A stretch of 64,000 bases of DNA from Patescibacteria group bacterium (GTDB taxonomy: Bacteria; Patescibacteriota; Patescibacteriia; UBA10025; JAHIVO01): contig JAZDEZ010000021.1 of assembly GCA_043808365.1 (NCBI GenBank), positions 403 to 64,402 on the forward strand, read 5' to 3'. A program made the translations under genes and the position numbers. A model generated the notes under the pieces. The model worked only from the letters and a program-made list of their open reading frames with translations. It did no database searches and was not told the origin of the DNA. Position 1 is the stretch's first letter; every line of letters begins with the position of its first letter. Below are positions 1 to 32,218 of the stretch, one piece after another.

Positions 1-1692
1 CGGGTGTATGTCGGCATTGAACAAGACGGCAGCCCAGACCTCAAATACGGCGACTATGTGGCATACGCGCCGCACCAGCAGCAATTCGAAACTTTTTTTC
101 ATGACCGGAATTTCGAAATAAAATTCATTAAACTCCTTAATCAGCTCCGCCATACATTGCCGAAACAGATTTCCGGAAAACTGTATGTTTTGTCCGAAGT
201 GCCGCGCGGCGCCGGCCTGAACCAATCCGGGGCCATCAATATTTCCATCGCCTCATTATTGGCACTGGAGACTGGCCTGGCCACACCGGCCAAACTCACT
301 CAATTAGCCGCCACCAAAACTCCCGATATCATGGCTGACGCCACCTTCCAAAAAATTCTACGCTTTGCCTGGAAGCTCGAATCATGCTCCCATGACGAGG
401 TCGGCAGCGCGTCCGCCCCTTTTGCCGCGTTCATCGAGTCCACTACGCCTATGATTTTCTTCTCTGAGCGCCGGTCCGGCAGCTACCGCCACCATCCGTA
501 CAGCCGGATGCCGTCTGACATCGAAGGTCATCATGAAATTTTCGACGGTATTGCCTGGAACGGCTACCGTCTGAAAGACCTGTGGCACTGGCAGAACGAC
601 CTGACCTGGCCGATAGACTACGGGCTCTTTTATCTCGGCCAACAGAAACATTCCGGGGTGTACTTGAAACCGATGCGAATCGTCAAGGAAAATCTCATGG
701 AGCTGGAAAAATTCGTGGCCGGCGACCTGAAAAAATTCTACCATGCTCCGGACGAAGCCATTCCCGCTTTCATTGACTTGGCAAATACCAACCACCAATA
801 CGGGTATTGGGAGCATTGCGTGGATTTCCTGATCATCCTCTCGGTCAAAGCCATCTCCGACCTGAAAAAACTCATCGAAAACGGCACCGCCGAATCGCTG
901 GACGAGCTGTGCGACACGGTCGCGCTCCAGGAAAAAGTTTACGAATTCTTCACTAAAGGACTGCCCTCATCAGGCGAACGGGATACGCTCCACCATATTA
1001 AACAGGTCTTGCGCGATAAAAACAATAACGGTTTACGGAGCATCCGCGTCCTGCCAGACCGGCCCGATGGCGGCGGCGACCTGCTCTTTATCGCCCCGCA
1101 AGGCTATCTCCAGGATAACCTGGAGCAGTTCCAAGGCTCGCTCCGGTCGCACGTCAGCCCATTGATACGCATTGATTATGCCTCATGGATAGACGGCGAA
1201 GAATCTGGCGGGATCGGCATCGAGCAGGACTTCCGCGATAATATTTTCTCCCCGTTCGTAACCCATGGCACTATCGGAGTCAAGGAATGGCAGGCGAACA
1301 CGGCGCCAATCCAGCGCGTCTACTCGCAAGAGGCTTTTGAAAAAAAACGCAAGGATATCGACCTGCTTCTCGATCCGTTCGAGCATAAAATTTATATCCA
1401 GGGCAAGCTCCTGACCTCAAAAAAAATAAAGTCAGCCAAGGGTACTATTGAAATATTAAAAATCCTCCTCAATCATCTCAATGAGGATGTCCGGGCGTCC
1501 GACCTGCCGCCGTCCGCTTACGTGGAAAGGAATGAAATGCAGAGCAAGATCATCACCCCGCTCTGCGCGGTATTCAAGGAAATTGCCGGCCATAAAATCC
1601 CCCTCCATTTACAAGGCGGCTTGCGCAAAAATTTCTCAATCAAGCTGGAAGCGCCGAATTTTGTCATTGGCTTGGTGGAAAAACAGATATAA
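1..1692 (+). CDS. GHMP-kinase-like protein with a C-terminal winged-helix (OmpR/PhoB-like) domain; the N-terminus may lie upstream of the window
   Basis: ORF 4..1692 is open to the window edge. PRGAGLNQSGA resembles GHMP motif II (PxGSGLGSSA). GGGDLLFIAP resembles the glycine-rich motif III. The last ~120 aa (KIYIQGKLLTSKKIKSAKGTIEILKILL..DVRASDL) resemble a trans_reg_C winged helix. Confidence 0.45.
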   Translation, partial: RVYVGIEQDGSPDLKYGDYVAYAPHQQQFETFFHDRNFEIKFIKLLNQLRHTLPKQISGKLYVLSEVPRGAGLNQSGAINISIASLLALETGLATPAKLTQLAATKTPDIMADATFQKILRFAWKLESCSHDEVGSASAPFAAFIESTTPMIFFSERRSGSYRHHPYSRMPSDIEGHHEIFDGIAWNGYRLKDLWHWQNDLTWPIDYGLFYLGQQKHSGVYLKPMRIVKENLMELEKFVAGDLKKFYHAPDEAIPAFIDLANTNHQYGYWEHCVDFLIILSVKAISDLKKLIENGTAESLDELCDTVALQEKVYEFFTKGLPSSGERDTLHHIKQVLRDKNNNGLRSIRVLPDRPDGGGDLLFIAPQGYLQDNLEQFQGSLRSHVSPLIRIDYASWIDGEESGGIGIEQDFRDNIFSPFVTHGTIGVKEWQANTAPIQRVYSQEAFEKKRKDIDLLLDPFEHKIYIQGKLLTSKKIKSAKGTIEILKILLNHLNEDVRASDLPPSAYVERNEMQSKIITPLCAVFKEIAGHKIPLHLQGGLRKNFSIKLEAPNFVIGLVEKQI

Positions 1693-1719
1693 ATTCACCG
1701 CCATTATCGGCGATACGCG

Positions 1720-1750
1720 CTCCGGAACTCTACCGGAGTTTTTCTTTTTT
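1720..1750 (+). terminator. Rho-independent terminator after the first CDS
   Basis: Stem CTCCGG / CCGGAG with a 7-nt loop, followed by TTTTTCTTTTTTT. Confidence 0.7.
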
Positions 1751-1754
1751 TCTC

Positions 1755-1786
1755 CCTTAGTTTTCGCTATGGCTCTGCTCTATGCT
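1755..1786 (+). promoter_or_regulatory. Shared upstream motif, copy 1 (CCTTAGTTTTCGC; TAGTTT-N17-TATGCT)
   Basis: A 13-mer identical to the copy at 3911 and 12/13 to the copy at 4171. A TAnnnT hexamer lies 17 nt after TAGTTT. Confidence 0.5.
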
Positions 1787-2020
1787 GAAAGCGCCGAAGA
1801 TACGCTTCTTTAAAAAAGCCTTAAACATCAAGCCATCGGCTGCCAGTCAAACCACATCGCACTGGCTTTCGCCTTTGGCGGATTAACGACATTCTCAACC
1901 CTGGAGCGATCTGGAGTTGAGACAACGAGGGGAGTCCCCCTCCCTTCTTGTCTAAATTTCAGAACAAATATGGCTGTTTGAAAACTTAATACCAATCTTG
2001 TAAAAGGAGGTTTCGAGAAC

Positions 2021-3097
2021 ATGAGTACATTAATGATTCTGCTGTTAGCCGTGGCTGGAATGGGGATAGTGCATTATTTCCAGTCATGCCGTCCAGACAT
2101 CGGCAAGAAAAACACTGCCGATTTTCTCAAGAGAGACAGGGAAAACAAGACTAAGGGGAATGAGGAGGATGTCCCCAAGAAACTGTGCGACACTGTAGAT
2201 AGCGTCATGCCATCATGCGAATATTCGGATACCGTAGTCACCAAACTGATAGTCGGCTTATTCCAGCTCATACTCATCCCACTACGACTGATCAACAATG
2301 CTTTCGTGTTGTTCATTGGCTTTTTACTGACTGCCATCGACGAAGCAAAACGTGCAATCCATGAACGATTCAAGAAACAGAATACCGCTAATGGTGAATA
2401 TTCACGCGGCCTCATGATTTCGTTCATTGCCCTGATTGCTCTGGTCGTATTAACCATGGCCAATTACCAGATCCTAAAAATAGGATTGCCGATCATCTGG
2501 CCAGTGGACAAAAGACCAATCATGAACATCTTCGGCATGGATGTATATGTTGTCAACCTGCTGGCCATCCTTATGATCGTTGCGGAATTCACCGCCAGCC
2601 TGCTGGCGTACGAATATCGTAGTTCAAAGGGTCTCATTGTAAAAAAAAGCAAGAGTACATCTGCCGTCATGTACCTCATCCTTATCATTTTATGTGCGGC
2701 TGAGGCCTTATTGGCAGTTTACCGTACTCAATACCAAACGAACTACAATAATAGCCTGCCGCTGTATGCCATTGGCTTCATCTCCTTCATCGTGCCGCTC
2801 CTCGCCGCCTTTTGCTTCGAGAAAATTAGCATGTACTTGGTCTGGATGCTGGCTGGTATCATGCTGATTGTCGTCGGTATCCTCTGGCTGCCGTTCCTAA
2901 TTGCCGAAATAATTGTCTCCTGGCTGCTATCACTGGCCCTCTACCTTTTGGAGGCCATATCAGCGCCTTTCCGCATGGCACACAAGGCGACTATAGACAT
3001 CCATGAATGGTCAACCGATGATGACGAATGCCAGGAAACGGAACCGAAACTGCTTAAACAAAAGATAAACGCACTCCAAACCAATGAAGGACGGTGA
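2021..3097 (+). CDS. Polytopic membrane protein of unknown function (about 7 predicted TM segments)
   Basis: 358-aa ORF. AGGAGG lies 10 nt upstream of the ATG. There are multiple long hydrophobic stretches and a charged N-proximal loop. No recognisable catalytic motif. Confidence 0.6.
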   Translation: MSTLMILLLAVAGMGIVHYFQSCRPDIGKKNTADFLKRDRENKTKGNEEDVPKKLCDTVDSVMPSCEYSDTVVTKLIVGLFQLILIPLRLINNAFVLFIGFLLTAIDEAKRAIHERFKKQNTANGEYSRGLMISFIALIALVVLTMANYQILKIGLPIIWPVDKRPIMNIFGMDVYVVNLLAILMIVAEFTASLLAYEYRSSKGLIVKKSKSTSAVMYLILIILCAAEALLAVYRTQYQTNYNNSLPLYAIGFISFIVPLLAAFCFEKISMYLVWMLAGIMLIVVGILWLPFLIAEIIVSWLLSLALYLLEAISAPFRMAHKATIDIHEWSTDDDECQETEPKLLKQKINALQTNEGR

Positions 3098-3102
3098 TCA
3101 CC

Positions 3103-3810
3103 ATGAAACGCCTACTGATCCTACTACTGCTTGGCTGCATAGTGATGGTTCTGGCGTCATGTTCAGAGCCCGTTCACCAGCAGCCAAAGTTCGTCATTGC
3201 CATTTTTGACGAACCGTCATCTATGAACGAACAGGCGCTGGAACAGGGGAAAGTGTTCATCGACAGCCGGATCGTCCCGTTGTTGGAGGGCGGCGACAAA
3301 TTCGGCATCATTTCTATCAGCGGCAACTCCTTTACCTGCCCGGACACTGGCCAACTATTCACGCTTGTATCGTCGCCAATAACCTGCGACAGGGAAATGG
3401 ACTCGATCAACTCCATAACGTTAAATCAGATCCATCGCCTGATCAGTGAAGTGCGCATCCGGCCAGAATTCACTGCCAGTGACATTCTAGGCGCCCTGGC
3501 CAGGGCCAGCACCTTCTTCGTCGAGGATACTCTGTCCGAAAAAATCCTGATCATCATCAGCGATATGGAAGAAAACGTCTGGCGACCGGGGATCACCGAC
3601 CTGATCAAGCTCAACGGCGTCCGCGTCTATGCCCTTTTCATCAGCCACAAGTTCAAAAACATCAAGGATGATGTCCAGGCATATACGGCCAAGAAACAGT
3701 ACTGGGAAAACCTCCTGCATTCTACCGGCACGGCCAATTCGTTCCTCTGGGACGACGACATCTCCCGCCTGAAAATGGATTGGTTAGTTGAGCAACTTGA
3801 GCAAAACTAA
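3103..3810 (+). CDS. Lipoprotein with a vWA-like domain
   Basis: The signal peptide ends in the lipobox LASC. FDEPSSM and ILIIISDMEEN resemble vWA/MIDAS-type strands. The gene is coupled to the upstream gene (its TGA stop lies at 3095-3097). The ATG at 3103 is preferred over the GTG at 3094. Confidence 0.5.
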   Translation: MKRLLILLLLGCIVMVLASCSEPVHQQPKFVIAIFDEPSSMNEQALEQGKVFIDSRIVPLLEGGDKFGIISISGNSFTCPDTGQLFTLVSSPITCDREMDSINSITLNQIHRLISEVRIRPEFTASDILGALARASTFFVEDTLSEKILIIISDMEENVWRPGITDLIKLNGVRVYALFISHKFKNIKDDVQAYTAKKQYWENLLHSTGTANSFLWDDDISRLKMDWLVEQLEQN

Positions 3811-3841
3811 CCTTCAGCACCTTGCGCCAATCGCACCCTTT

Positions 3842-3872
3842 CCCGCATGTATCCACCATGCGGGATTTTTTT
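3842..3872 (+). terminator. Rho-independent terminator
   Basis: Stem CCCGCATG / CATGCGGG followed by ATTTTTTT. Confidence 0.7.
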
Positions 3873-3910
3873 AATGAAAATGCACTTTTAATAATTTGAA
3901 AGATTTTTTT

Positions 3911-3942
3911 CCTTAGTTTTCGCCCGTAAAGCGAAATATAAT
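3911..3942 (+). promoter_or_regulatory. Shared upstream motif, copy 2 (CCTTAGTTTTCGC; TAGTTT-N17-TATAAT)
   Basis: The same 13-mer as at 1755. A perfect TATAAT lies at 3937-3942. AAAACAAAAAC lies exactly 26 nt after TAGTTTTCGCC. Confidence 0.55.
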
Positions 3943-3973
3943 TGAAACACAAAACAAAAACTGGAGGTGAGCC

Positions 3974-4114
3974 ATGAAAAATAGCTCTATAACCAAGCCT
4001 TCTGATACGGATAGTACAGATAAGGAAAAGCAACCGGAAGATCAGGACAACACTCCTGAACTTAAGTCACGTTATGATGACCCAAACTATTCACCAGATG
4101 GCACGGATTTCTAA
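3974..4114 (+). CDS. Small acidic hydrophilic protein (46 aa), not in the ORF track
   Basis: GGAGGTGA lies 3 nt upstream of the ATG (6 nt from the GGAGG core). Translation is MKNSSITKPSDTDSTDKEKQPEDQDNTPELKSRYDDPNYSPDGTDF. It has its own promoter-like motif upstream and a hairpin plus T-run downstream (about 4137-4165). Confidence 0.45.
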   Translation: MKNSSITKPSDTDSTDKEKQPEDQDNTPELKSRYDDPNYSPDGTDF

Positions 4115-4170
4115 CAATCCGGATCGATTATGCAAAAAAGCCTCGTCTTGCGGGGCTTTTTCTTTTACTT

Positions 4171-4202
4171 CCGTAGTTTTCGCCTACCCCACCCGATACC
4201 CT
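4171..4202 (+). promoter_or_regulatory. Shared upstream motif, copy 3 (CCGTAGTTTTCGC; TAGTTT-N17-TACCCT)
   Basis: 12/13 match to copies 1 and 2. AAAACAAAAAC again lies exactly 26 nt after TAGTTTTCGCC (4211-4221). Confidence 0.5.
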
Positions 4203-4413
4203 AAAGGTAGAAAACAAAAACCCTGTAAATAAAGGACTTTGACAACATAATAAGGAGGTGGTTATTGGCACTTCTGTTAACGTCGCGGAGTTGTTCGAAA
4301 AAACTAAAAAACCCCCATATTCCAGGAGGAAAATGTATGGAGGCTTTTTTATCCCCTCGCCAGCAATTAATAGTTTCTGAAATTCTCAACTTCAAAAAAT
4401 AGGAGAAAATGCC

Positions 4414-7014
4414 ATGAAAACGGCAAGATTCTTTTCTACGGTATTGCTTGCGGCATTTGTGTTCGTGGGCATCATGTCGGTTCAGCTCGGATGTGATAAA
4501 CACCAAAATCCAGTCGAACCGACAAAAGCACCTGACATAATCACAATGGTTGGCGGTTCCAATGGGGATTCTGCTACTCAGACTGAAATCGGTCCTGTTG
4601 CAGCATCCCTGAACCAGACACCAGTGGTCATTGGCCCCAACGACCTCATCACGGTCACTGATTACCAGCCAACGTACACCCAAACGGTTAACCTCACTAT
4701 GCCGGATGTGGTGCACCGGGGGGTCATTAACCGTACTGGCATAAAAGATGTGGTTGTACATGAGTTAAGCCGTGTTACTGGAAATCTTGTAACAATCAAT
4801 GAAATTGTCCAGTACCAGCCGCTAACAAACACCATAAAAGGTGTGAGTATCTATGCCAAGTATGGCGCGACGGGACTTGATATCCTAAACTCCATTGATA
4901 CGTACATGAATGGTCAGGAATGGGAATACTATGCGATAACAAAGAGCACCAAGACTGACTACTTCCTGTTACCCAAGAAAGCAGTGGCTATCCCGCCAGT
5001 CTTCGGACCTGGTAATATCGCCAATCTTTTGCCGAAATACCAGGAATTACCCAGTCCGATAACAGTACCCCAAATTGCTGGCAAAATAAAGGAAGTCATC
5101 CTCACTACTTCAAAGGGGTTATGCATTGCAATTGATGTTGGCATAGTCTTGAGTTTAGTGTCCGGGCCAGAAATAGTTGGTGTCGGTGCATTCGCGTGTG
5201 CGCTCGTTGCCACGGACGACTTGGCCCAGCAAGTTGTCGACATGATTAAGCAAAGTTCGAATGTCCGAGTGTACTTCAAACGAATTGAGTATGACGGGAC
5301 AACTGATCCACTCATTCTACTTATTTCCACGCCTATACCGAATCCGCAGCCGATTTTCCAGCTTGATATCTTACCGAATACTCAGGTTGAACTCATGCAA
5401 GGTGAAACGAAGCAATTCAACGCTTACCCACGTGATGCATCCGGGAACATTGTCGGTGCTCCCGTGAGTTGGTCAACAACCTTCGGCACTATTGATGCAA
5501 ATGGTTTGTATTCTGCTACTACGGTTGGTCAAGGGACCGTTACGGCAAGTTTAGGCAGTGCATGGCCTAACGTACCACCTGCTACTGTCAAAGTGGTCGT
5601 AACAGCCGTCATCGCCAACCGCCCGCCCATCGTCAGTGTGCCGGCTTCAGCCAGTGCGACCATTAACATGCCGATCACTATCAATATCACTAAGAGTGAT
5701 CCGGATGGAAATGCGGTACAGATTGCCGTTGACCCTGGAAACCAGACAGTTGAATGGGTACAGGGCACCAGCTACACTCACACATTTAACGTAGTGGGCG
5801 TCTATAATGTCCGTTTCACTGGGTATGATGGCAAGGCATGGTCGCCGACCGCCATCTGTGTCGTGACGGTAGCCGGTCCGGCTAATCGCCCGCCTGTGGT
5901 GAGCGTTCCTCCGACGGTTAATGCGACCATTAACGTGCCGGTCACCATCAATATCATTAAGAGTGATCCGGATGGAAATGTGGTACAGATTGCCGTTGAC
6001 CCTGGAGACCAGACAGGAATCGAGTGGGTGCAGGGCAATAGCTACATCCACACGTTTAAGGCCGCTGGCATGTATAATGTTCGCTTCACCGGGCACGACG
6101 GCAAGGCATGGAGCCCGACCGCCATCTGTGTTGTGACGGTAGCCGGTCCGGCTAATACTGCGCCGACAGCCTGCATGTCGGTTTCACCACAAAACGGCAG
6201 CGGCACAACTGCGTCAGTCTTCACCTTCACCTCATGCTCAACGGATCCCGAAACCCCGGTTGACGCCCTGCAGGTCCGCTGGCAAATCGACGGAGTCTGG
6301 ACAGCCTGGACCACGTTGAAAACGCAAACAAAACAGTGGACTACGGTTGGACAGAAGACGGTCGTTCTTGAAGTGAGGGACGCTGGTGGGTTGACAGCAC
6401 AGGCAACTAAAACGGTTATTGTGAACCCGCCGCTGAACAATCCGCCGACTGTAAGTGTCGCCAGCACGACTACGGGGCAGGTTGGTGCAACAACCGTAAT
6501 ACCGTATACGGCAAGCGATCGGGAAACACCTTCAGCTAATCTCTGTGTGGCGGTAGACTGGCTCGATGGATCAGCGGCCGTATACTTCTGGGGTGGAGCA
6601 CCAGCGACATACATCTTCAAATCGGCCGGCACGTATGATGTGCGATTCACAGCATGGGACGGGACTGACTGGTCGCCGACGGCGATTTGCAGAGTGACTG
6701 TCACCAGCGGGTGCTCCAACATGCCAACGCTCCTCGGGCCGATCAACGGGCAAACGGTCAGCTTGAGCGCAGGTTTCTCGTTCTACTGGACGAAGGTCTG
6801 CGACGGATTCGGCGAATACAACCTATACGTGATGACTGCGCCGAATTCAACCGGCAAAACTGTCTTCGCGGAAAGAATGACCCCGACTTATACGTCGCTC
6901 GGTTACTGGGGATCCGGCCTGCTGCCCAATACGACGTACTATTGGTGCCTGCAAATGGGCAACTTTGTAGGTGCGCCGCTGACACCGTTTGCCTCGTTTA
7001 GAACGGCGCCATAG
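4414..7014 (+). CDS. Large secreted/surface protein with Big_2-like, PKD/Ig-like repeat and FN3-like domains
   Basis: N-terminal signal peptide. VELMQGETKQFNAYPRD..GTVTASLG resembles a bacterial Ig-like (Big_2) domain. Two near-identical ~90-aa repeats and two further diverged copies are present. The C-terminus has a YYW-containing beta-sandwich-like segment. AGGAG lies 8 nt upstream of the ATG. Confidence 0.75.
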   Translation: MKTARFFSTVLLAAFVFVGIMSVQLGCDKHQNPVEPTKAPDIITMVGGSNGDSATQTEIGPVAASLNQTPVVIGPNDLITVTDYQPTYTQTVNLTMPDVVHRGVINRTGIKDVVVHELSRVTGNLVTINEIVQYQPLTNTIKGVSIYAKYGATGLDILNSIDTYMNGQEWEYYAITKSTKTDYFLLPKKAVAIPPVFGPGNIANLLPKYQELPSPITVPQIAGKIKEVILTTSKGLCIAIDVGIVLSLVSGPEIVGVGAFACALVATDDLAQQVVDMIKQSSNVRVYFKRIEYDGTTDPLILLISTPIPNPQPIFQLDILPNTQVELMQGETKQFNAYPRDASGNIVGAPVSWSTTFGTIDANGLYSATTVGQGTVTASLGSAWPNVPPATVKVVVTAVIANRPPIVSVPASASATINMPITINITKSDPDGNAVQIAVDPGNQTVEWVQGTSYTHTFNVVGVYNVRFTGYDGKAWSPTAICVVTVAGPANRPPVVSVPPTVNATINVPVTINIIKSDPDGNVVQIAVDPGDQTGIEWVQGNSYIHTFKAAGMYNVRFTGHDGKAWSPTAICVVTVAGPANTAPTACMSVSPQNGSGTTASVFTFTSCSTDPETPVDALQVRWQIDGVWTAWTTLKTQTKQWTTVGQKTVVLEVRDAGGLTAQATKTVIVNPPLNNPPTVSVASTTTGQVGATTVIPYTASDRETPSANLCVAVDWLDGSAAVYFWGGAPATYIFKSAGTYDVRFTAWDGTDWSPTAICRVTVTSGCSNMPTLLGPINGQTVSLSAGFSFYWTKVCDGFGEYNLYVMTAPNSTGKTVFAERMTPTYTSLGYWGSGLLPNTTYYWCLQMGNFVGAPLTPFASFRTAP
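5611..6150 (+). repeat. Tandem ~270-bp in-frame repeat (2 units) inside the surface protein gene
   Basis: Unit 1 starts at gccaaccgcccgcccatcgtc (5611) and unit 2 at gctaatcgcccgcctgtggtg (5881). Both end with ..gtgacggtagccggtccg. Long identical runs include agagtgatccggatggaaatg and gtacagattgccgttgaccctgga. Confidence 0.9.
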
Positions 7015-7036
7015 TATGTTTCTTGTTCTTTCTCAC

Positions 7037-7066
7037 GGCAGAAGCCTCTACTTCTGCCGTTTTTTT
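7037..7066 (+). terminator. Rho-independent terminator of the surface protein gene
   Basis: Stem GGCAGAAG / CTTCTGCC followed by GTTTTTTT. Confidence 0.8.
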
Positions 7067-7459
7067 ACAAAAAACGCCCTGGCAGAATGTCCAAGCCAGG
7101 GCGGTGAAGTTACACAAATAATCATATAGACGATTCGTCCAGCCAGACCCGAAAGCGACAGAAAATTCTGTCGGAACGAGGAATTCGCCACTGTTCACCT
7201 CTTCCCTTGACCGCGGTGAAAGGATGCACGCGGTTTGACCAAGCTACTCCGGTGATCATTCTCTCGCCCCGTATGCCTAACAGGGCCGTCTTCGAACCGT
7301 TGGGTTCGGTTCGCAGAGATAGTCTGTTTGACGTGGCGCCAGCGCCATCACTCCGTGATAGCCGCTGACCTTTGCTGGAGCGGACTCAGGACTCGCCCAA
7401 TTCTTTCAATTCGCATTCCTCTCATGCGAGGAACTTCGACTCTCCATATGATTATTGTG
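7067..7459 (-). ncRNA. rnpB: Independent structured ncRNA gene; candidate RNase P RNA (type A-like)
   Basis: - A 347-nt core (7113-7459) is closed by a ~15-bp terminal helix (CACAAATAATCATAT / ATATGATTATTGTG) and contains many internal hairpins.
- A minus-strand promoter-like TTGACG-N17-TACGCT lies at 7507-7479.
- A minus-strand terminator (CGCCCTGGC / GCCAGGGCG plus T-run) lies at 7103-7067.
- The minus-strand RNA contains, in the canonical order, AGUCCGCUCCA (cf. AGUCCGGGCUCCA), CAAACAGA, CAAGGGAAGAGGUG and CGACAGAA..CGCUUUCGGGUC (cf. CGACAGAA..GGCUUAUCGGUC). Confidence 0.5.
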
Positions 7460-7532
7460 TAAAAGAGCATCTGCCATAAGCGTACGCTTAATAGTCCCGT
7501 GCGTCAAAATGTTCAGAACAAATCATTAGGGA

Positions 7533-7538
7533 TATAAT
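7533..7538 (+). promoter_or_regulatory. TATAAT -10 box 6 nt upstream of the capA-like ATG (leaderless-type start)
   Basis: gatATAATagcagtATG. There is no Shine-Dalgarno sequence and no room for a leader. Confidence 0.5.
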
Positions 7539-7544
7539 AGCAGT

Positions 7545-8657
7545 ATGGAAAATGTCGCGGACAAACTACGGCCAAAACCGCGCCGTCCCGCCCGCTGGGC
7601 GGCAATTCTCACAATAACCATTGCCTGTCTTATCGCTGGCGCAGTCTGGATATGGCAATACAACAGTTCGCGATATGACAAACAGCCTGAATTAATATTA
7701 AACGCCCAACGCGCCATATCGCCCGATGCCGCCAACAGCAACAAAAATAGCGCTACCACGACGCTGATCGCCGTCGGCGACATTATGCTGTCGCGGGATG
7801 TTGAGCAAAAAATGATCAATAAAAAAGATTGGCGGTTCCCGTTTTTAGAAACAGCCGCTCTGACCTCGGCCGGCGATATTGTTTTCGGCAACCTCGAAAC
7901 GCCCCTCATCAACGGACCGAGGGTGCTGACCGGGGAAATGTCATTCCGCGCAGACACCCGATCAGTGGCCGGCTTAACGTATGCGGGATTTAATGTCCTG
8001 TCATTGGCGAACAATCATGTGAAAAATCAGGGCGAGGCGGGCATCGCTTCAACGATCGAAACGCTTGACCAGGTAAATATTTTACACGCTGGAGCCGGAT
8101 CAAATGATGCGGCCGCGCGCGAACCGGCCATTATGGAAAAAAACGGGCTCAAGTTCGGTTTTCTGGCGTATGTGGACAGCGCGTTCACGCCCGCATCGTA
8201 TGAAGCGACGCCAATTAGGGCTGGCTCGCCTTTTTTAAATGAAGCTGCTTTAGCGGACGACCTGGCTGGACTGAAACCGCGGGCTGACGTCATTATCGTC
8301 TCAATGCACGCCGGCACTGAATACCAGGACTCGCAAAACCAAAAACAAACCAGCTTCGCCCGGCGGGCCATTGACCTGGGCGCCCAGGTGGTGATCGGCC
8401 ACCATCCGCACGTCGTCGAGCCGGTCGAACAATACCGCGACGGCTATATTATGTATTCACTCGGCAATTTCGTCTTTGACCAGATGTGGTCGGCCAAGAC
8501 CCGCGCCGGCGCCGTAGCGACAATCACCTTCACCGGAACCAAACCTTCGGATATTAAAATAACTCCCATAAAAATATTTGAGTACGCCCAGCCGAGAGTG
8601 ATCGAGGGCACGGAAGCTGAGGCAATTTTGGCCAGGATGAATAGTTTTACAAAATAG
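7545..8657 (+). CDS. CapA/PGA-biosynthesis family metallophosphoesterase-like protein with an N-terminal membrane anchor
   Basis: Motifs seen: IAVGDIML, FGNLETPL, LSLANNH, VSMHAGTEY, VIGHHPHV, YSLGNFVFDQ. Confidence 0.8.
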   Translation: MENVADKLRPKPRRPARWAAILTITIACLIAGAVWIWQYNSSRYDKQPELILNAQRAISPDAANSNKNSATTTLIAVGDIMLSRDVEQKMINKKDWRFPFLETAALTSAGDIVFGNLETPLINGPRVLTGEMSFRADTRSVAGLTYAGFNVLSLANNHVKNQGEAGIASTIETLDQVNILHAGAGSNDAAAREPAIMEKNGLKFGFLAYVDSAFTPASYEATPIRAGSPFLNEAALADDLAGLKPRADVIIVSMHAGTEYQDSQNQKQTSFARRAIDLGAQVVIGHHPHVVEPVEQYRDGYIMYSLGNFVFDQMWSAKTRAGAVATITFTGTKPSDIKITPIKIFEYAQPRVIEGTEAEAILARMNSFTK

Positions 8658-8674
8658 ACGTTTTATGATATAAT
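8646..8674 (+). promoter_or_regulatory. Sigma70-type promoter TTTACA-N17-TATAAT with TG extension
   Basis: The 21-nt string cgttttatgatataatcaacg (8659-8679) is identical to 21784-21804. Confidence 0.6.
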
Positions 8675-8697
8675 CAACGCATCCTAAAACAACAAAA

Positions 8698-21777: not shown

Positions 21778-21799
21778 TTCGTTCGTTTTATGATATAAT
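21771..21799 (+). promoter_or_regulatory. Sigma70-type promoter TTGATT-N17-TATAAT with TG extension
   Basis: It contains the 21-nt string identical to 8659-8679. Confidence 0.6.
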
Positions 21800-21838
21800 C
21801 AACGTTGAAATTGATTATATTTTTCATCCCAGATTCAC

Positions 21839-26883: not shown

Positions 26884-26953
26884 TAGATAGTAATTAGTAA
26901 ATTAGTAACTAGTGAGTGAGTCAATTTCAGTGCCAACTGCAAACCTAATACCT

Positions 26954-27316
26954 ATGACCATAACTTCGTACAAAGACCTCATAGTATGGCAAAAATCAGT
27001 TGAGTTAGTTACGCAGATTTATCACATAACTAAAGGTTTCCCCAAATCGGAACAGTTTGGGTTAACGTCACAAATCAGGAGGGCAGCAATTTCCATACCC
27101 TCTAACATCGCAGAAGGTTGTGCCAGAAAATCACGACTTGAATACGCTCACTTTATTAGAATTGCATCTGGCTCCGGTGCTGAGCTTGAGACACAACTAT
27201 ATATTGCCCTGCAACTGAATTTTATCGATAAAAATACTTATAACACCGCCGAATCCTTATTAAATGAAATAATGAGAATGCTGAATAAACTGAACCTTTC
27301 TCTAAAATATCACTAA
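26954..27316 (+). CDS. Four-helix-bundle protein (23S rRNA intervening-sequence protein family)
   Basis: YKDLIVWQKSVELV..FPKSEQFGLTSQIRRAAISIPSNIAEG is the family signature. The ATG at 26954 is preferred to the GTG at 26912. Confidence 0.85.
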   Translation: MTITSYKDLIVWQKSVELVTQIYHITKGFPKSEQFGLTSQIRRAAISIPSNIAEGCARKSRLEYAHFIRIASGSGAELETQLYIALQLNFIDKNTYNTAESLLNEIMRMLNKLNLSLKYH

Positions 27317-27369
27317 CGTACTAATTACTAAACTACTAACTACTAACTTACTAATAACTAACTACTAAC

Positions 27370-32186: not shown

Positions 32187-32218
32187 AAACAACATGAGTA
32201 GTTTTATGTTGTTTTTTA
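32187..32218. terminator. Bidirectional terminator hairpin between convergent genes
   Basis: Stem AAAACAACAT / ATGTTGTTTT with A/T runs on both sides. Confidence 0.6.

Follow-up and report, generated by a model that had tools for sequence, protein, structure and literature searches.

A conserved element in place of the -35 box at the promoters of a Patescibacteria surface-protein cluster, and an adjacent GHMP-kinase-like/winged-helix protein as its candidate activator

Results

Organization of the surface-protein cluster

The window, that is, the whole 64-kb stretch of DNA analyzed here, belongs to a 192.5-kb contig of an uncultured Patescibacteria (CPR) bacterium and contains a chromosomal surface-protein cluster, with dnaA at a distance of about 37 kb. 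All the features of the cluster given below are on the + strand. At the upstream border of the cluster, positions 4..1692 carry the 3' part (562 of 640 codons) of a gene cut by the window edge, whose product is 100% identical to P0005 (NCBI locus tag V1668_03535) and which we consider below as the candidate regulator. A terminator hairpin followed by a T-run (1719..1754) ends the transcript of this gene, and the T-run runs into the T-rich upstream part of the first copy of the motif studied here.

The next transcription unit starts with a long conserved leader (1793..2020) having an MFE z-score of -2.97. This leader is 81% identical to that of a related genome (L013; the loci of related genomes are given hereafter by such numbers) versus 54% for the proteins, and it is possibly a structured RNA. 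A search of the whole window against Rfam at gathering thresholds gave no match, and a search restricted to 1650-7600 only returned chance-level matches to terminator hairpins (E up to 1). The leader precedes a gene (2021..3097) encoding a 358-aa protein that is indeed a multi-pass membrane protein, as originally proposed, with about 7-8 hydrophobic segments (the 7-TM protein hereafter), and a lipoprotein gene (3103..3810), recognized in the sequence by a signal peptide and the lipobox LASC. The two genes form one operon since they overlap or abut, and neither product contains a known domain; in particular, the description of the lipoprotein as vWA-like found no support in Pfam, NCBIfam, or PDB sequence searches.

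A second terminator hairpin with its T-run (3841..3872) separates this operon from a stand-alone unit encoding an acidic peptide of 46 aa (3974..4114), an open reading frame that we could confirm. Small peptide genes are found at the equivalent position in L014, L020, and L026. After a third hairpin with a T-rich tail (4135..4170) comes the leader of the PKD gene (4222..4413), which contains TTTGACAAC...AAGGAGGT at about 4237-4257 and a possible upstream ORF of 45 codons (4265-4402); similar leaders with TTGACAA[C/T]-(A)GGAGG are present in L014, L020, and L026. The gene itself (4414..7014) encodes an 866-aa secreted or lipoprotein-like surface protein with PKD/Ig repeats, and the predicted PKD domains were recovered with Pfam (PKD_4, PKD, Big_2). 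Over its last 224 aa, it shares 60% identity with a 1107-aa PKD protein from the Kerfeldbacteria cluster (L020). A last terminator (7035..7067) ends the cluster.

A motif restricted to the cluster in the window

The original prediction was that the pattern CC(T/G)TAGTTTTCGC occurs three times, each time after a terminator T-run and at a fixed distance from a -10-like hexamer. Searching the whole window, we found exact matches to CCKTAGTTTTCGC at 1755, 3911, and 4171, all on the + strand, with no further exact match and 0 matches in each of 100 shuffles, while the additional matches obtained with 1-2 mismatches were at chance level. In the window, the motif is confined to the surface-protein cluster. 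A hairpin with a T-run precedes each of the three copies (hairpins at 1719-1739, 3841-3865, and 4135-4161), the distance from this terminator-like structure to the motif being 10-46 nt.

Scored with the weight matrix described below, copy 1 (1748..1769 for the 22-bp matrix window, core CCTTAGTTTTCGC at 1755-1767) reaches 28.1 bits and lies, in the promoter predicted for the 7-TM/lipoprotein operon, at about -45 to -24. Copy 2 (3904..3925, core CCTTAGTTTTCGC at 3911-3923) has the highest score among all sites, 32.0 bits, and copy 3 (4164..4185, core CCGTAGTTTTCGC at 4171-4183) reaches 29.1 bits. The proposed geometry holds for all three: exactly 17 nt after TAGTTT lie the -10-like hexamer TATGCT (1781..1786), the -10 hexamer TATAAT (3937..3942), and the -10-like hexamer TACCCT (4197..4202), with predicted starts near 1793, 3949, and 4209, respectively. 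The string TAGTTT-N17-TAnnnT matches the window four times, versus 0.26 expected, and none of the 100 shuffles reached four. The fourth match, at 32199, was taken as chance since it lies between two convergent gene ends and scores below the 8 bits required for reporting with the weight matrix.

The element is conserved at equivalent promoters in related genomes

We compared the cluster with its counterparts in a set of 10 genomes, drawn from a regulator family of about 530 clusters. The 13-mer turned out to be the core of a ~20-bp element with the consensus ttttTTTCCkTAGTTTTCgc, of which 21 copies were collected in eight Patescibacteria genomes, that of the window included. All 21 are on the coding strand, upstream of genes of the same cluster: besides the window, a site precedes each cluster transcription unit in L014 (three sites), L015 (three), L017/L018 (two), L020 (three), L024 (two), and L026 (four), and the element is present before the orthologous operon in L013. 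The weight matrix built from these 21 sites holds 22 bits of information; the sites score 17.3-32 bits while the best non-site in 161 kb, both strands, scores 14.8 bits, and no non-site above 12 bits in these 161 kb has a TAnnnT at 16-17 nt.

In the comparison of orthologous clusters that had been suggested, the motif is kept at equivalent promoters in seven further genomes, although the proteins are only 28-86% identical. In a three-way alignment of the window, L013, and L018 at copy 1, the motif stands out as an invariant block while the spacer diverges. In two loci of the regulator family, L027 (identity of 24%) and L028 (identity of 44%), no clear motif was seen, in the case of L028 within 115 nt of upstream sequence. 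L013 has the motif-bearing operon and no adjoining regulator gene on its 6-kb contig.

The element occupies the place of the -35 box

At the 21 sites, the distance to the TAnnnT hexamer is 17 nt in 16 cases and 16 nt in the five others. The third nucleotide past the hexamer is an A in 17 of 21 sites and the seventh is a purine in 20, and it is from this purine, 7 nt past the hexamer, that we infer the transcription start. Counted from there, the 22-bit element covers about -45 to -24 in all 21 promoters, which is where class II factors of the PhoB or SARP kind sit over the -35 region. Having only 2 of 6 positions in common with TTGACA, TAGTTT does not provide the -35 box of a sigma-70-type promoter, and no TG extended -10 was seen by inspection of the motif promoters. 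The consensus contains two TTTC blocks exactly 10 bp apart; the upstream block has a lower information content and overlaps the terminator T-runs.

The other promoters of the window are of a different kind, in agreement with the original prediction: canonical TTGACA boxes with an N16-18 spacing to TAnnnT/TATAnT were found at 9 of 30 other upstream regions, and the same scan of the window found none within the surface-protein cluster.

A second shared block is specific to the source genome and the spacer hairpins are not conserved

It had been noticed that copies 2 and 3 share a further block, AAAACAAAAAC. This block is indeed exact at 3951..3961 and 4211..4221, in both cases 26 nt after TAGTTTTCGCC and thus at the same offset in the PKD unit as in the 46-aa peptide unit. 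In the predicted transcript, the copy at 3951 falls at about +3 to +13, an A-rich initial transcribed region directly before the Shine-Dalgarno sequence GGAGGT. The bipartite arrangement was found only in the source genome: AAAACAAAAAC is absent from the copy 1 unit and from every related locus, where the same position of orthologous promoters only shows a purine/A-rich initial transcribed region.

The hairpins proposed for the 26-nt spacers can form in copies 2 and 3 (z of -2.9 and -2.8), where they would lie upstream of the predicted start sites, and they are not conserved, the structure being not significant in copy 1 and in four of the five orthologous promoters folded, and borderline in the fifth (z of -2.0).

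The adjacent gene encodes a GHMP-kinase-like protein with a winged-helix-like C-terminal domain

Members of the candidate regulator family are ~620-640 aa long. In an AF2 model examined with Foldseek, the protein consists of a GHMP-kinase-like domain and a C-terminal winged-helix-like domain formed by its last ~115 aa (about 1345-1689 in the window). The GHMP fold is recognized by structure: the matches include galactokinases (about 1e-12) and the mevalonate kinase 1kvk (E 8e-13), with alignments spanning roughly 470-490 columns. By sequence, Pfam GHMP_kinases_N only reaches E 0.065-0.27, below the curated thresholds, and the NCBIfam mevalonate kinase model gives a weak match (21 bits for a cut-off of 403, E 1e-4). 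The invariant sequence VPxGAGLNQSGA resembles the phosphate-binding motif II of GHMP kinases (PxGSGLGSSAA-like), and the presumed motif I region reads SAPGSFFWSAGLAVxYGG and has no GEH.

The C-terminal domain is modeled with a pLDDT of 91 and the topology beta-sheet/a1/b/a2/long a3/beta-hairpin, the order of fold elements of the OmpR/PhoB type. Its top Foldseek matches in the PDB are mostly DNA-binding domains of this fold, namely those of BaeR, ToxR, SaeR, GlnR, PhoP, AfsR (8k60), NsrR, and PmrA, all of them weak (E 0.02-2.7, target-normalized TM-score of 0.18-0.50). Response-regulator DNA-binding domains are also among the top matches of profile searches against the PDB, in the correct register at E 0.27-0.9, and hhalign against PhoB/ArlR gives the same register (P 0.009, probability 4%). 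Pfam Trans_reg_C (PF00486) did not match any of 11 family members at E up to 10. DRNEMQSKI, a sequence that hardly varies in the family, lies in the putative recognition helix.

The regulator is more conserved than its presumed target genes, with identities of 86/56/56% versus 51/38/35% for the 7-TM protein, and in five genomes (L014, L015, L018, L020, and L026), the motif is also present at the promoter of the regulator gene itself. The family comprises about 530 clusters at 50% identity, in which all source-named members are annotated "hypothetical", and it was not found in viral contigs. A limited literature search found no described GHMP/winged-helix fusion.

Discussion

Which factor reads the element?

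The original prediction, namely a dedicated regulon under the control of a specific factor (an alternative sigma or an activator) rather than generic promoters, is supported, as the motif is restricted to the cluster in the window, is conserved, keeps a fixed distance to TAnnnT, and differs from the TTGACA promoters. We conclude that the motif promoters probably form a dedicated, activator-dependent regulon. Regarding the factor, it is somewhat better than an even guess, in our opinion, that the ~20-bp element replacing the -35 box is read by the adjacent GHMP-kinase-like/winged-helix protein acting as an activator.

According to this model, the element would occupy the -35 place in three sigma-70-type promoters of the window, each retaining a normal TAnnnT -10 at 16-17 bp downstream, and would offer two TTTC blocks one helical turn apart. 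Since these promoters match TTGACA at 2 of 6 positions and lack an extended -10, they would be weak alone and thus dependent on an activator that covers -45 to -25, the way PhoB occupies pho boxes and SARPs occupy their own sites. The candidate activator is the ~620-640-aa protein encoded directly upstream (4-1692), for which we infer DNA binding, activation rather than repression, and ligand sensing: its C-terminal winged helix of OmpR/PhoB-like topology would be the DNA reader, with TTTCCGTAGTTTTCGC as the putative bound sequence, and its GHMP-kinase-like domain presumably binds a small molecule or a nucleotide. The regulon would comprise here the 7-TM/lipoprotein operon, the 46-aa acidic peptide, and the PKD-repeat surface protein, and the regulator would activate its own gene too. 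The regulon could extend beyond the cluster, or the factor could be encoded elsewhere, since the scan of the source genome covered 64 kb.

In the strongest alternative, an alternative sigma factor whose gene lies elsewhere in the genome would use the motif as its -35 element, with no separate activator and the GHMP/winged-helix protein a mere member of the regulon. An element lying exactly at -35 with a fixed spacing of 16-17 bp to a second hexamer is what promoters of the sigma-70 family look like, the motif is completely different from TTGACA, and the inspection covered 64 kb of a 192.5-kb contig of a larger genome. Nevertheless, the conserved block is asymmetric and, at 13-20 bp, longer than what sigma region 4 recognizes (5-8 bp). 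Its partner is also a housekeeping-type TAnnnT, while ECF sigma factors use a CGT-type -10 (e.g., CGTC) and sigma-28 uses GCCGATAA, so that the promoters do not resemble those of ECF/group 3 sigma factors. Neither the window nor the 10 related loci contained an alternative sigma gene, the only sigma gene seen being the housekeeping rpoD beside dnaG in L020; linkage to the cluster is found in 0 of 10 genomes for an alternative sigma versus nine for the winged-helix protein. We therefore favor an activator and regard the sigma explanation as unlikely.

Less probable again, and in our eyes rather improbable, is that the element is the operator of a repressor, the adjacent protein or another one, which occludes the -35 of otherwise constitutive promoters. 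A position overlapping the -35 fits either mode of control, five genomes show autoregulation, and most fusions of an enzyme fold to a winged helix, the ROK proteins NagC and Mlc among them, act as repressors. What argues against it is the promoters themselves: with no recognizable -35 (2/6) and no TG extended -10, there would be little basal activity for a repressor to act on, and in 21 of 21 sites, the motif replaces the -35 rather than overlapping a TTGACA box.

We give very little credit to an action of the motif in RNA, as a hairpin arm (GUUUUC with a downstream GAAAAC-like tract) or, within a read-through transcript, as part of a signal for processing or one associated with terminators. 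Copies 2 and 3 and L014b do have an A-rich tract further downstream that pairs with GUUUUC (z -2.0 to -2.9), and each copy in the window is preceded by a terminator. Yet five of eight promoters folded have no significant structure, the sequence of the pairing partner is not conserved, and such a hairpin gives no role to the TAnnnT that is strictly conserved at 16-17 nt. Downstream of the cluster's last terminator (7035-7060) there is no motif, and the motif copy of the L018 regulator (at 7862) has no preceding terminator hairpin. Finally, that the three copies are functionless remnants of a local intergenic duplication, as AAAACAAAAAC common to copies 2 and 3 at the same offset might suggest for recent duplicates, is hardly credible and already contradicted by the comparative sequence data, the 26-nt spacers between the shared blocks being unrelated and the element being kept in eight genomes despite proteins at 28-56% identity and flanking noncoding DNA that cannot be aligned.

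Comparison with known systems

The closest parallel to an activator-dependent regulon is provided by the pho box of E. coli and OmpR/PhoB class II activation, where an activator site abutting the spacer replaces the -35, as proposed here, the -10 is likewise a normal TAnnnT, and direct repeats lie about one helical turn apart, an arrangement that the two TTTC blocks may reproduce, the upstream one having a lower information content. In these activators, the winged helix begins with an N-terminal beta-sheet and ends with a C-terminal hairpin, the recognition helix lying between them, an order also seen in the AF2 model, and the PhoB-type regulator gene is autoregulated, a feature that recalls the motif in the regulator's own promoter. 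Unlike PhoB, the candidate regulator has neither a receiver domain nor a histidine kinase, its input domain being a ~500-aa GHMP-kinase fold, and its DNA-binding domain has no Pfam Trans_reg_C match; moreover, the element TTTCCkTAGTTTTCgc is unrelated to the pho box, and the host is a CPR bacterium.

SARPs such as AfsR and ActII-ORF4 of Streptomyces combine an OmpR-like DNA-binding domain with a non-receiver domain, as we propose here, and bind direct repeats overlapping or replacing the -35 that are common to several promoters of one cluster. In SARPs, however, the DNA-binding domain is N-terminal and followed by BTA, with or without NB-ARC/TPR, whereas it is C-terminal here with a GHMP-kinase fold as partner, and there is no detectable sequence homology between them.

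The use of a kinase fold as a ligand sensor, as proposed here, has precedents among one-component regulators built on enzyme folds, i.e., ROK proteins (NagC/Mlc/XylR), BirA, NadR, and yeast Gal3p/Gal1p. ROK proteins associate an ASKHA fold with an N-terminal winged helix, unlike the GHMP fold and C-terminal domain of the candidate regulator. Gal3p, a galactokinase paralogue with the GHMP fold, shows that this fold can act as a transcriptional sensor; it lacks a DNA-binding domain, however, and its effect is exerted via Gal80. The middle promoters of phage T4 also replace the -35 with a distinct conserved box centered near -30 (the MotA box), keep a standard -10, and are switched on as a class only by a dedicated factor, as proposed here; however, they belong to a phage system and need AsiA to remodel sigma, whereas the cluster described here is chromosomal.

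Significance

The broader reading, for which we see even chances, is that this family, widespread in Patescibacteria, represents a new class of one-component activators made of a GHMP-fold sensor and a highly divergent OmpR-like winged helix, with TTTCCkTAGTTTTCgc as the family-wide operator replacing the -35 in a positive-feedback circuit. Such a circuit would govern the regulator gene, the small adjacent peptide, and surface and membrane proteins, including the PKD adhesin-like protein and the 7-TM/lipoprotein pair. We know of no earlier CPR regulon with a defined cis-element and its cognate factor, and this one, if true, would be the first. In that case, it may control the cell surface by which CPR episymbionts attach to their hosts.

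The motif in the window

The 64-kb window contains exactly three instances of CC(T/G)TAGTTTTCGC, on the plus strand at 1755, 3911 and 4171; in 100 dinucleotide-preserving shuffles the pattern never appeared. A search for copies at random or intragenic positions, with one or two mismatches allowed, returned additional matches inside genes at chance level only. Each copy lies 10-46 nt 3' of a terminator-like hairpin (1719-1739, 3841-3865 and 4135-4161) with a T-run after it, and the sequence facts on which the original prediction was built are correct. The motif is not tied to terminators as such, since none follows the cluster's last terminator at 7035-7060 and the copy preceding the regulator gene in L018, a related locus from another genome, has no terminator hairpin upstream. 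The TAGTTT-N17-TAnnnT geometry was observed four times in the window for 0.26 expected; the fourth instance, flanked by two convergent gene ends at 32199, falls below the 8-bit reporting threshold of our weight matrix and is regarded as chance.

The window is chromosomal; it contains dnaA, dnaN, rnpA, yidC, aminoacyl-tRNA synthetase and glycogen metabolism genes along with T4SS-type pilins of the kind typical of CPR, and its 7-TM protein is 100% identical to V1668_03540, encoded on a 192.5-kb contig of a Patescibacteria group bacterium MAG. The window has no gene for a sigma factor. Canonical promoters such as TTGACA-17-TATACT precede other genes, as had been noticed, and a strict TTGACA-type promoter test was passed by 9 of 30 upstream regions in the window, none of the nine being in the cluster. 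The motif promoters combine a normal -10 with a -35 position devoid of TTGACA likeness. Since canonical promoters serve other genes and none in the cluster, the motif promoters form a separate class. The motif is very probably a cluster-specific promoter element.

Elsewhere in the window, the 20-mer GTTTTATGATATAATCAACG, an extended -10 promoter TGnTATAAT plus flanks without any match in shuffles, is identical at 8660-8679 and 21785-21804, where it precedes a nucleotidyl-transferase gene (8698) and the yebC-ruvC operon (21839). Inside the glycogen-metabolism operon, a gene for a 23S-rRNA-IVP/bAvd-like protein (26912-27369) has on its 3' side a 53-nt CTAA-rich low-complexity spacer (actaattactaaactactaactactaac...), and no reverse transcriptase was seen nearby.

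Conservation of the motif in related genomes

Orthologous loci were collected through homologues of the 7-TM protein and of P0005 (V1668_03535), the 640-aa protein encoded upstream of it; a search of metagenomes with the 7-TM alignment returned a single locus. Comparison of the orthologous clusters showed that each of their transcription units is preceded by the element, in every case on the coding strand. One site was found in L013, two each in L017/L018 and L024, three each in L014, L015 and L020 (Candidatus Kerfeldbacteria) and four in L026; adding the three window copies brings the total to 21 sites across 8 genomes. The cluster proteins of these motif-bearing genomes are only 28-86% identical to the window's counterparts. 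The aligned sites yield the consensus ttttTTTCCkTAGTTTTCgc (22 bits). Weight-matrix scores of the 21 sites range from 17.3 to 32 bits, against 14.8 for the top other position in 161 kb of non-redundant sequence on both strands, and leave-one-out matrices give the sites 10.5-30.9. TAnnnT is present in all 21 sites, at 17 nt in 16 and at 16 nt in five, and none of the non-sites scoring above 12 bits has it at that spacing.

When the window, L013 and L018 promoters are aligned, the motif stands out as an invariant block next to a spacer without a single invariant column, a classical phylogenetic footprint. Of the 21 sites, 17 have A three nucleotides past the hexamer and 20 have a purine seven nucleotides past it, which suggests a start site at this purine followed by a purine-rich initial transcribed region. 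The interpretation of the motif as the mark of a dedicated regulon is supported, as is the conservation of this regulon across Patescibacteria.

Two other readings of the element were rejected. TAGTTT might itself be a -10 hexamer, a possibility prompted by TTGACA-N17-TAGTTT in the related locus L028; the window copies have no -35-like sequence upstream, and TAnnnT always lies 16-17 nt downstream. A sigma-28 promoter would be hinted at by CCGATA in copy 3 (4171), but the other copies do not have it. At L015 12033 there is a weaker site resembling the motif, CTTTATTTTTCTGAT with TACTAT 17 nt further on, and it directly precedes the EF-P gene found after the cluster in L015 and L016. Its -10 is only 6 nt ahead of the annotated ATG, and the site could be due to chance or reflect a leaderless or mis-annotated start.

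Features lacking conservation or support

The original prediction included a second element, AAAACAAAAAC, and hairpins in the spacer before it. Exact copies of AAAACAAAAAC stand at 3951 and 4211, each 26 nt past TAGTTTTCGCC, but no such 11-mer exists in any related locus and it was rejected as a conserved second box; orthologous promoters carry only an A/G-rich tract at the equivalent position. The most plausible view is that this 11-mer forms the A-rich 5' end of two of the source genome's transcripts. The pattern TAGTTTTCGC-N25-29-AAAACAAAAAC gave 12 single matches from unrelated phyla in GTDB genomes, a set from which the source genome and its relatives are absent, and these matches are due to chance. 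For copies 2 and 3 the spacer hairpins reach significance (z about -2.9 and -2.8, respectively), for copy 1 they do not, and they are not conserved: among five orthologous promoters folded, four gave non-significant values and the fifth (L014 at 3627) a borderline hairpin (z -2.0). They would sit 5' of the predicted start sites. As for the lipoprotein described as "vWA-like", Pfam, NCBIfam and PDB sequence searches gave no support to this label.

The adjacent gene encodes a candidate regulator

The gene at 4-1692 of the window encodes the final 562 residues of P0005, which is the most conserved protein of the cluster (86, 56 and 56% to its L017, L014 and L015 counterparts, versus 51, 38 and 35% for the 7-TM protein). 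An AlphaFold2 model built on 12 homologues reached a pLDDT of 75 and a pTM of 0.73. Its first ~500 residues match the fold of GHMP kinases, with mevalonate kinase (1kvk, E 8e-13) and also galactokinases among the matches. The relation is faint in sequence profiles, and the sequence tests for membership in GHMP Pfam and NCBIfam models failed for the family.

The C-terminal 129 residues modelled alone gave a pLDDT of 91 and the order beta-sheet, helix, strand, short helix, long helix, beta-hairpin, which in the model corresponds to the topology of the OmpR/PhoB effector domain. The top PDB fold matches were the DNA-binding domains of BaeR, ToxR, SaeR, GlnR, M. tuberculosis PhoP, AfsR, NsrR and PmrA, all of them weak (E 0.02-2.7, target-normalised TM-scores 0.18-0.50). 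Profile searches against PDB sequences placed response-regulator effector domains among the top matches in matching register (E 0.27-0.9), a broader profile of the domain bringing no improvement on the narrow one; hhalign against PhoB/ArlR gave a P of 0.009 with a probability of 4%, and Pfam Trans_reg_C did not match. Given this model topology, the weakness of the matches and the lack of a Trans_reg_C match, we describe the domain as a winged helix with OmpR-like topology rather than as a member of PF00486. Its long helix opens with the almost invariant DRNEMQSKIxxPL, and a conserved recognition helix would fit a DNA element conserved across the family.

The regulator's own promoter bears the motif in L014, L015, L018, L020 and L026, often as TTCCkTATTTTTC. 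In 9 of 10 genomes, the regulator gene has motif-bearing or candidate target genes as neighbours; L013, a short contig, is the exception. The C-terminal-domain profile retrieved 530 representative clusters (50% identity) at E ≤1e-3, 479 of them at ≤1e-10; among the 150 matches listed, nearly all measure 540-640 aa and carry the domain C-terminally. The named members are "hypothetical protein" entries of Patescibacteria, Berkelbacteria and Kerfeldbacteria, and no relative was found in the viral contigs searched. The most likely reader of the motif is this protein, a candidate new type of one-component regulator. Immediately 5' of the regulator gene, two loci (L014 1251-1466, L020 9644-9805) have a small Cys-rich ORF (CxxC...CxC) under a canonical TTGACA promoter; in the source genome the equivalent region falls outside the window.

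Leaders, peptide genes and a conserved non-coding block

The leader of the 7-TM operon (~230 nt, 1793-2020) is 81% identical to that of L013, the encoded proteins being 54% identical. It folds better than 200 of 200 shuffles (z -2.97), with a long hairpin at ~1910-1962, and shows no conservation in L018. Loci L014 and L015 have in its place a gene for a 194-226-aa membrane/coiled-coil protein; that the leader is a decayed copy of this gene was rejected, tblastn having found nothing. Common to leaders 3' of motif promoters is the series TTGACAA(C/T), 6-12 nt, (A)GGAGG and start codon (window 4237-4257, L014 ~3980, L020 ~12319, L026 ~3670), which is not a second promoter since no -10 comes after it. 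The window copy precedes a possible 45-codon upstream ORF (4265-4402) 5' of the PKD gene. Within the latter, two adjacent ~250-nt repeats at 5630-6140, opening AATCGCCCGCC(C/T) and nearly identical in DNA, encode tandem PKD domains, consistent with a recent duplication inside the gene.

Four loci have a gene for a hydrophilic peptide of 45-51 aa with its own motif promoter and terminator (window 3974-4114, L014 3685-3840, L020 12034-12177, L026 2386-2523). It lies directly 3' of the regulator gene in L014, L020 and L026, and the 7-TM/lipoprotein operon separates the two in the window. The L014 and L020 peptides are homologous and both end in APGC; the L026 peptide ends in PYTC and that of the window in DGTDF. 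The pairing of a regulator with a small peptide is reminiscent of peptide-signalling circuits, but here the peptide has no signal sequence.

A conserved non-coding block of ~390 nt (7066-7470, minus strand), with its own minus-strand terminator-like site (7095-7078), separates the PKD gene terminator from the PGA_cap gene. Its identity is 73% to L026 5430-6003 and 69% to L018 12305-12660, so that synteny with the cluster holds in three genomes. Of the 77 pairs in the RNAalifold prediction, 19 show compensatory changes. Rfam searches, this block included, yielded nothing either at gathering thresholds or with E relaxed to 1, and a tRNA/tmRNA search found none. The block, which is not a tmRNA, is a candidate new structured RNA.

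Proposed mechanism and significance

We propose that the element takes the place of the -35 box in sigma-70-type promoters, spanning ~-45 to -24. Because both a -35 and an extended -10 are missing, the motif promoters should need an activator. The element contains two TTTC blocks 10 bp apart, and the adjacent regulator may bind it as a head-to-tail dimer, the binding mode of OmpR/PhoB proteins and SARPs, recruiting RNA polymerase holoenzyme when its GHMP-like domain binds a ligand or nucleotide. The targets would be the 7-TM/lipoprotein operon with its long conserved leader (2021-3810), the 46-aa acidic peptide and the PKD-repeat surface protein (4414-7014), and the regulator would also boost its own synthesis. 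The target set varies by genome: L020 has a peptide gene together with a PKD protein, and L026 and L024 have other membrane proteins. We consider the full model, including the identity of the factor, fairly probable.

An alternative sigma factor encoded elsewhere could instead read the motif, which is possible but less likely: the conserved block exceeds the length of a sigma region-4 site, the -10 is a housekeeping one, and in none of the genomes examined is a gene for an alternative sigma linked to the cluster. It is unlikely that the element is a repressor operator, since there is no basal -35 to be occluded. The comparative data contradict both an action of the motif at the RNA level, which is highly improbable, and an origin of its copies as a duplication remnant, which is even less credible.

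An activator binding in place of the -35 would work like the pho-box promoters of PhoB and the cluster promoters controlled by SARPs, and the motif promoters recall the MotA-box logic of T4 middle promoters. The architecture of the candidate regulator parallels that of ROK proteins, BirA and NadR, one-component regulators with an enzyme fold, and that of yeast Gal3p, in which the GHMP fold is used as a sensor. A limited literature search returned nothing relevant on GHMP/winged-helix fusions or on CPR promoter classes.

Gene regulation in CPR/Patescibacteria is nearly unexplored because almost all members are uncultured, and their genomes have few recognisable regulators. Our analysis supplies an exact, searchable cis-element with a promoter class apart from the housekeeping one, as well as a concrete candidate factor of undescribed domain architecture. 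Its targets would be surface and membrane proteins, of the type one would expect to act in attachment to host cells. With the organism uncultured, the hypothesis is testable by gel shift and heterologous reporter, and the motif permits regulon prediction across hundreds of CPR genomes. If the model is true, the GHMP fold would join the enzyme folds recruited as bacterial transcriptional sensors.
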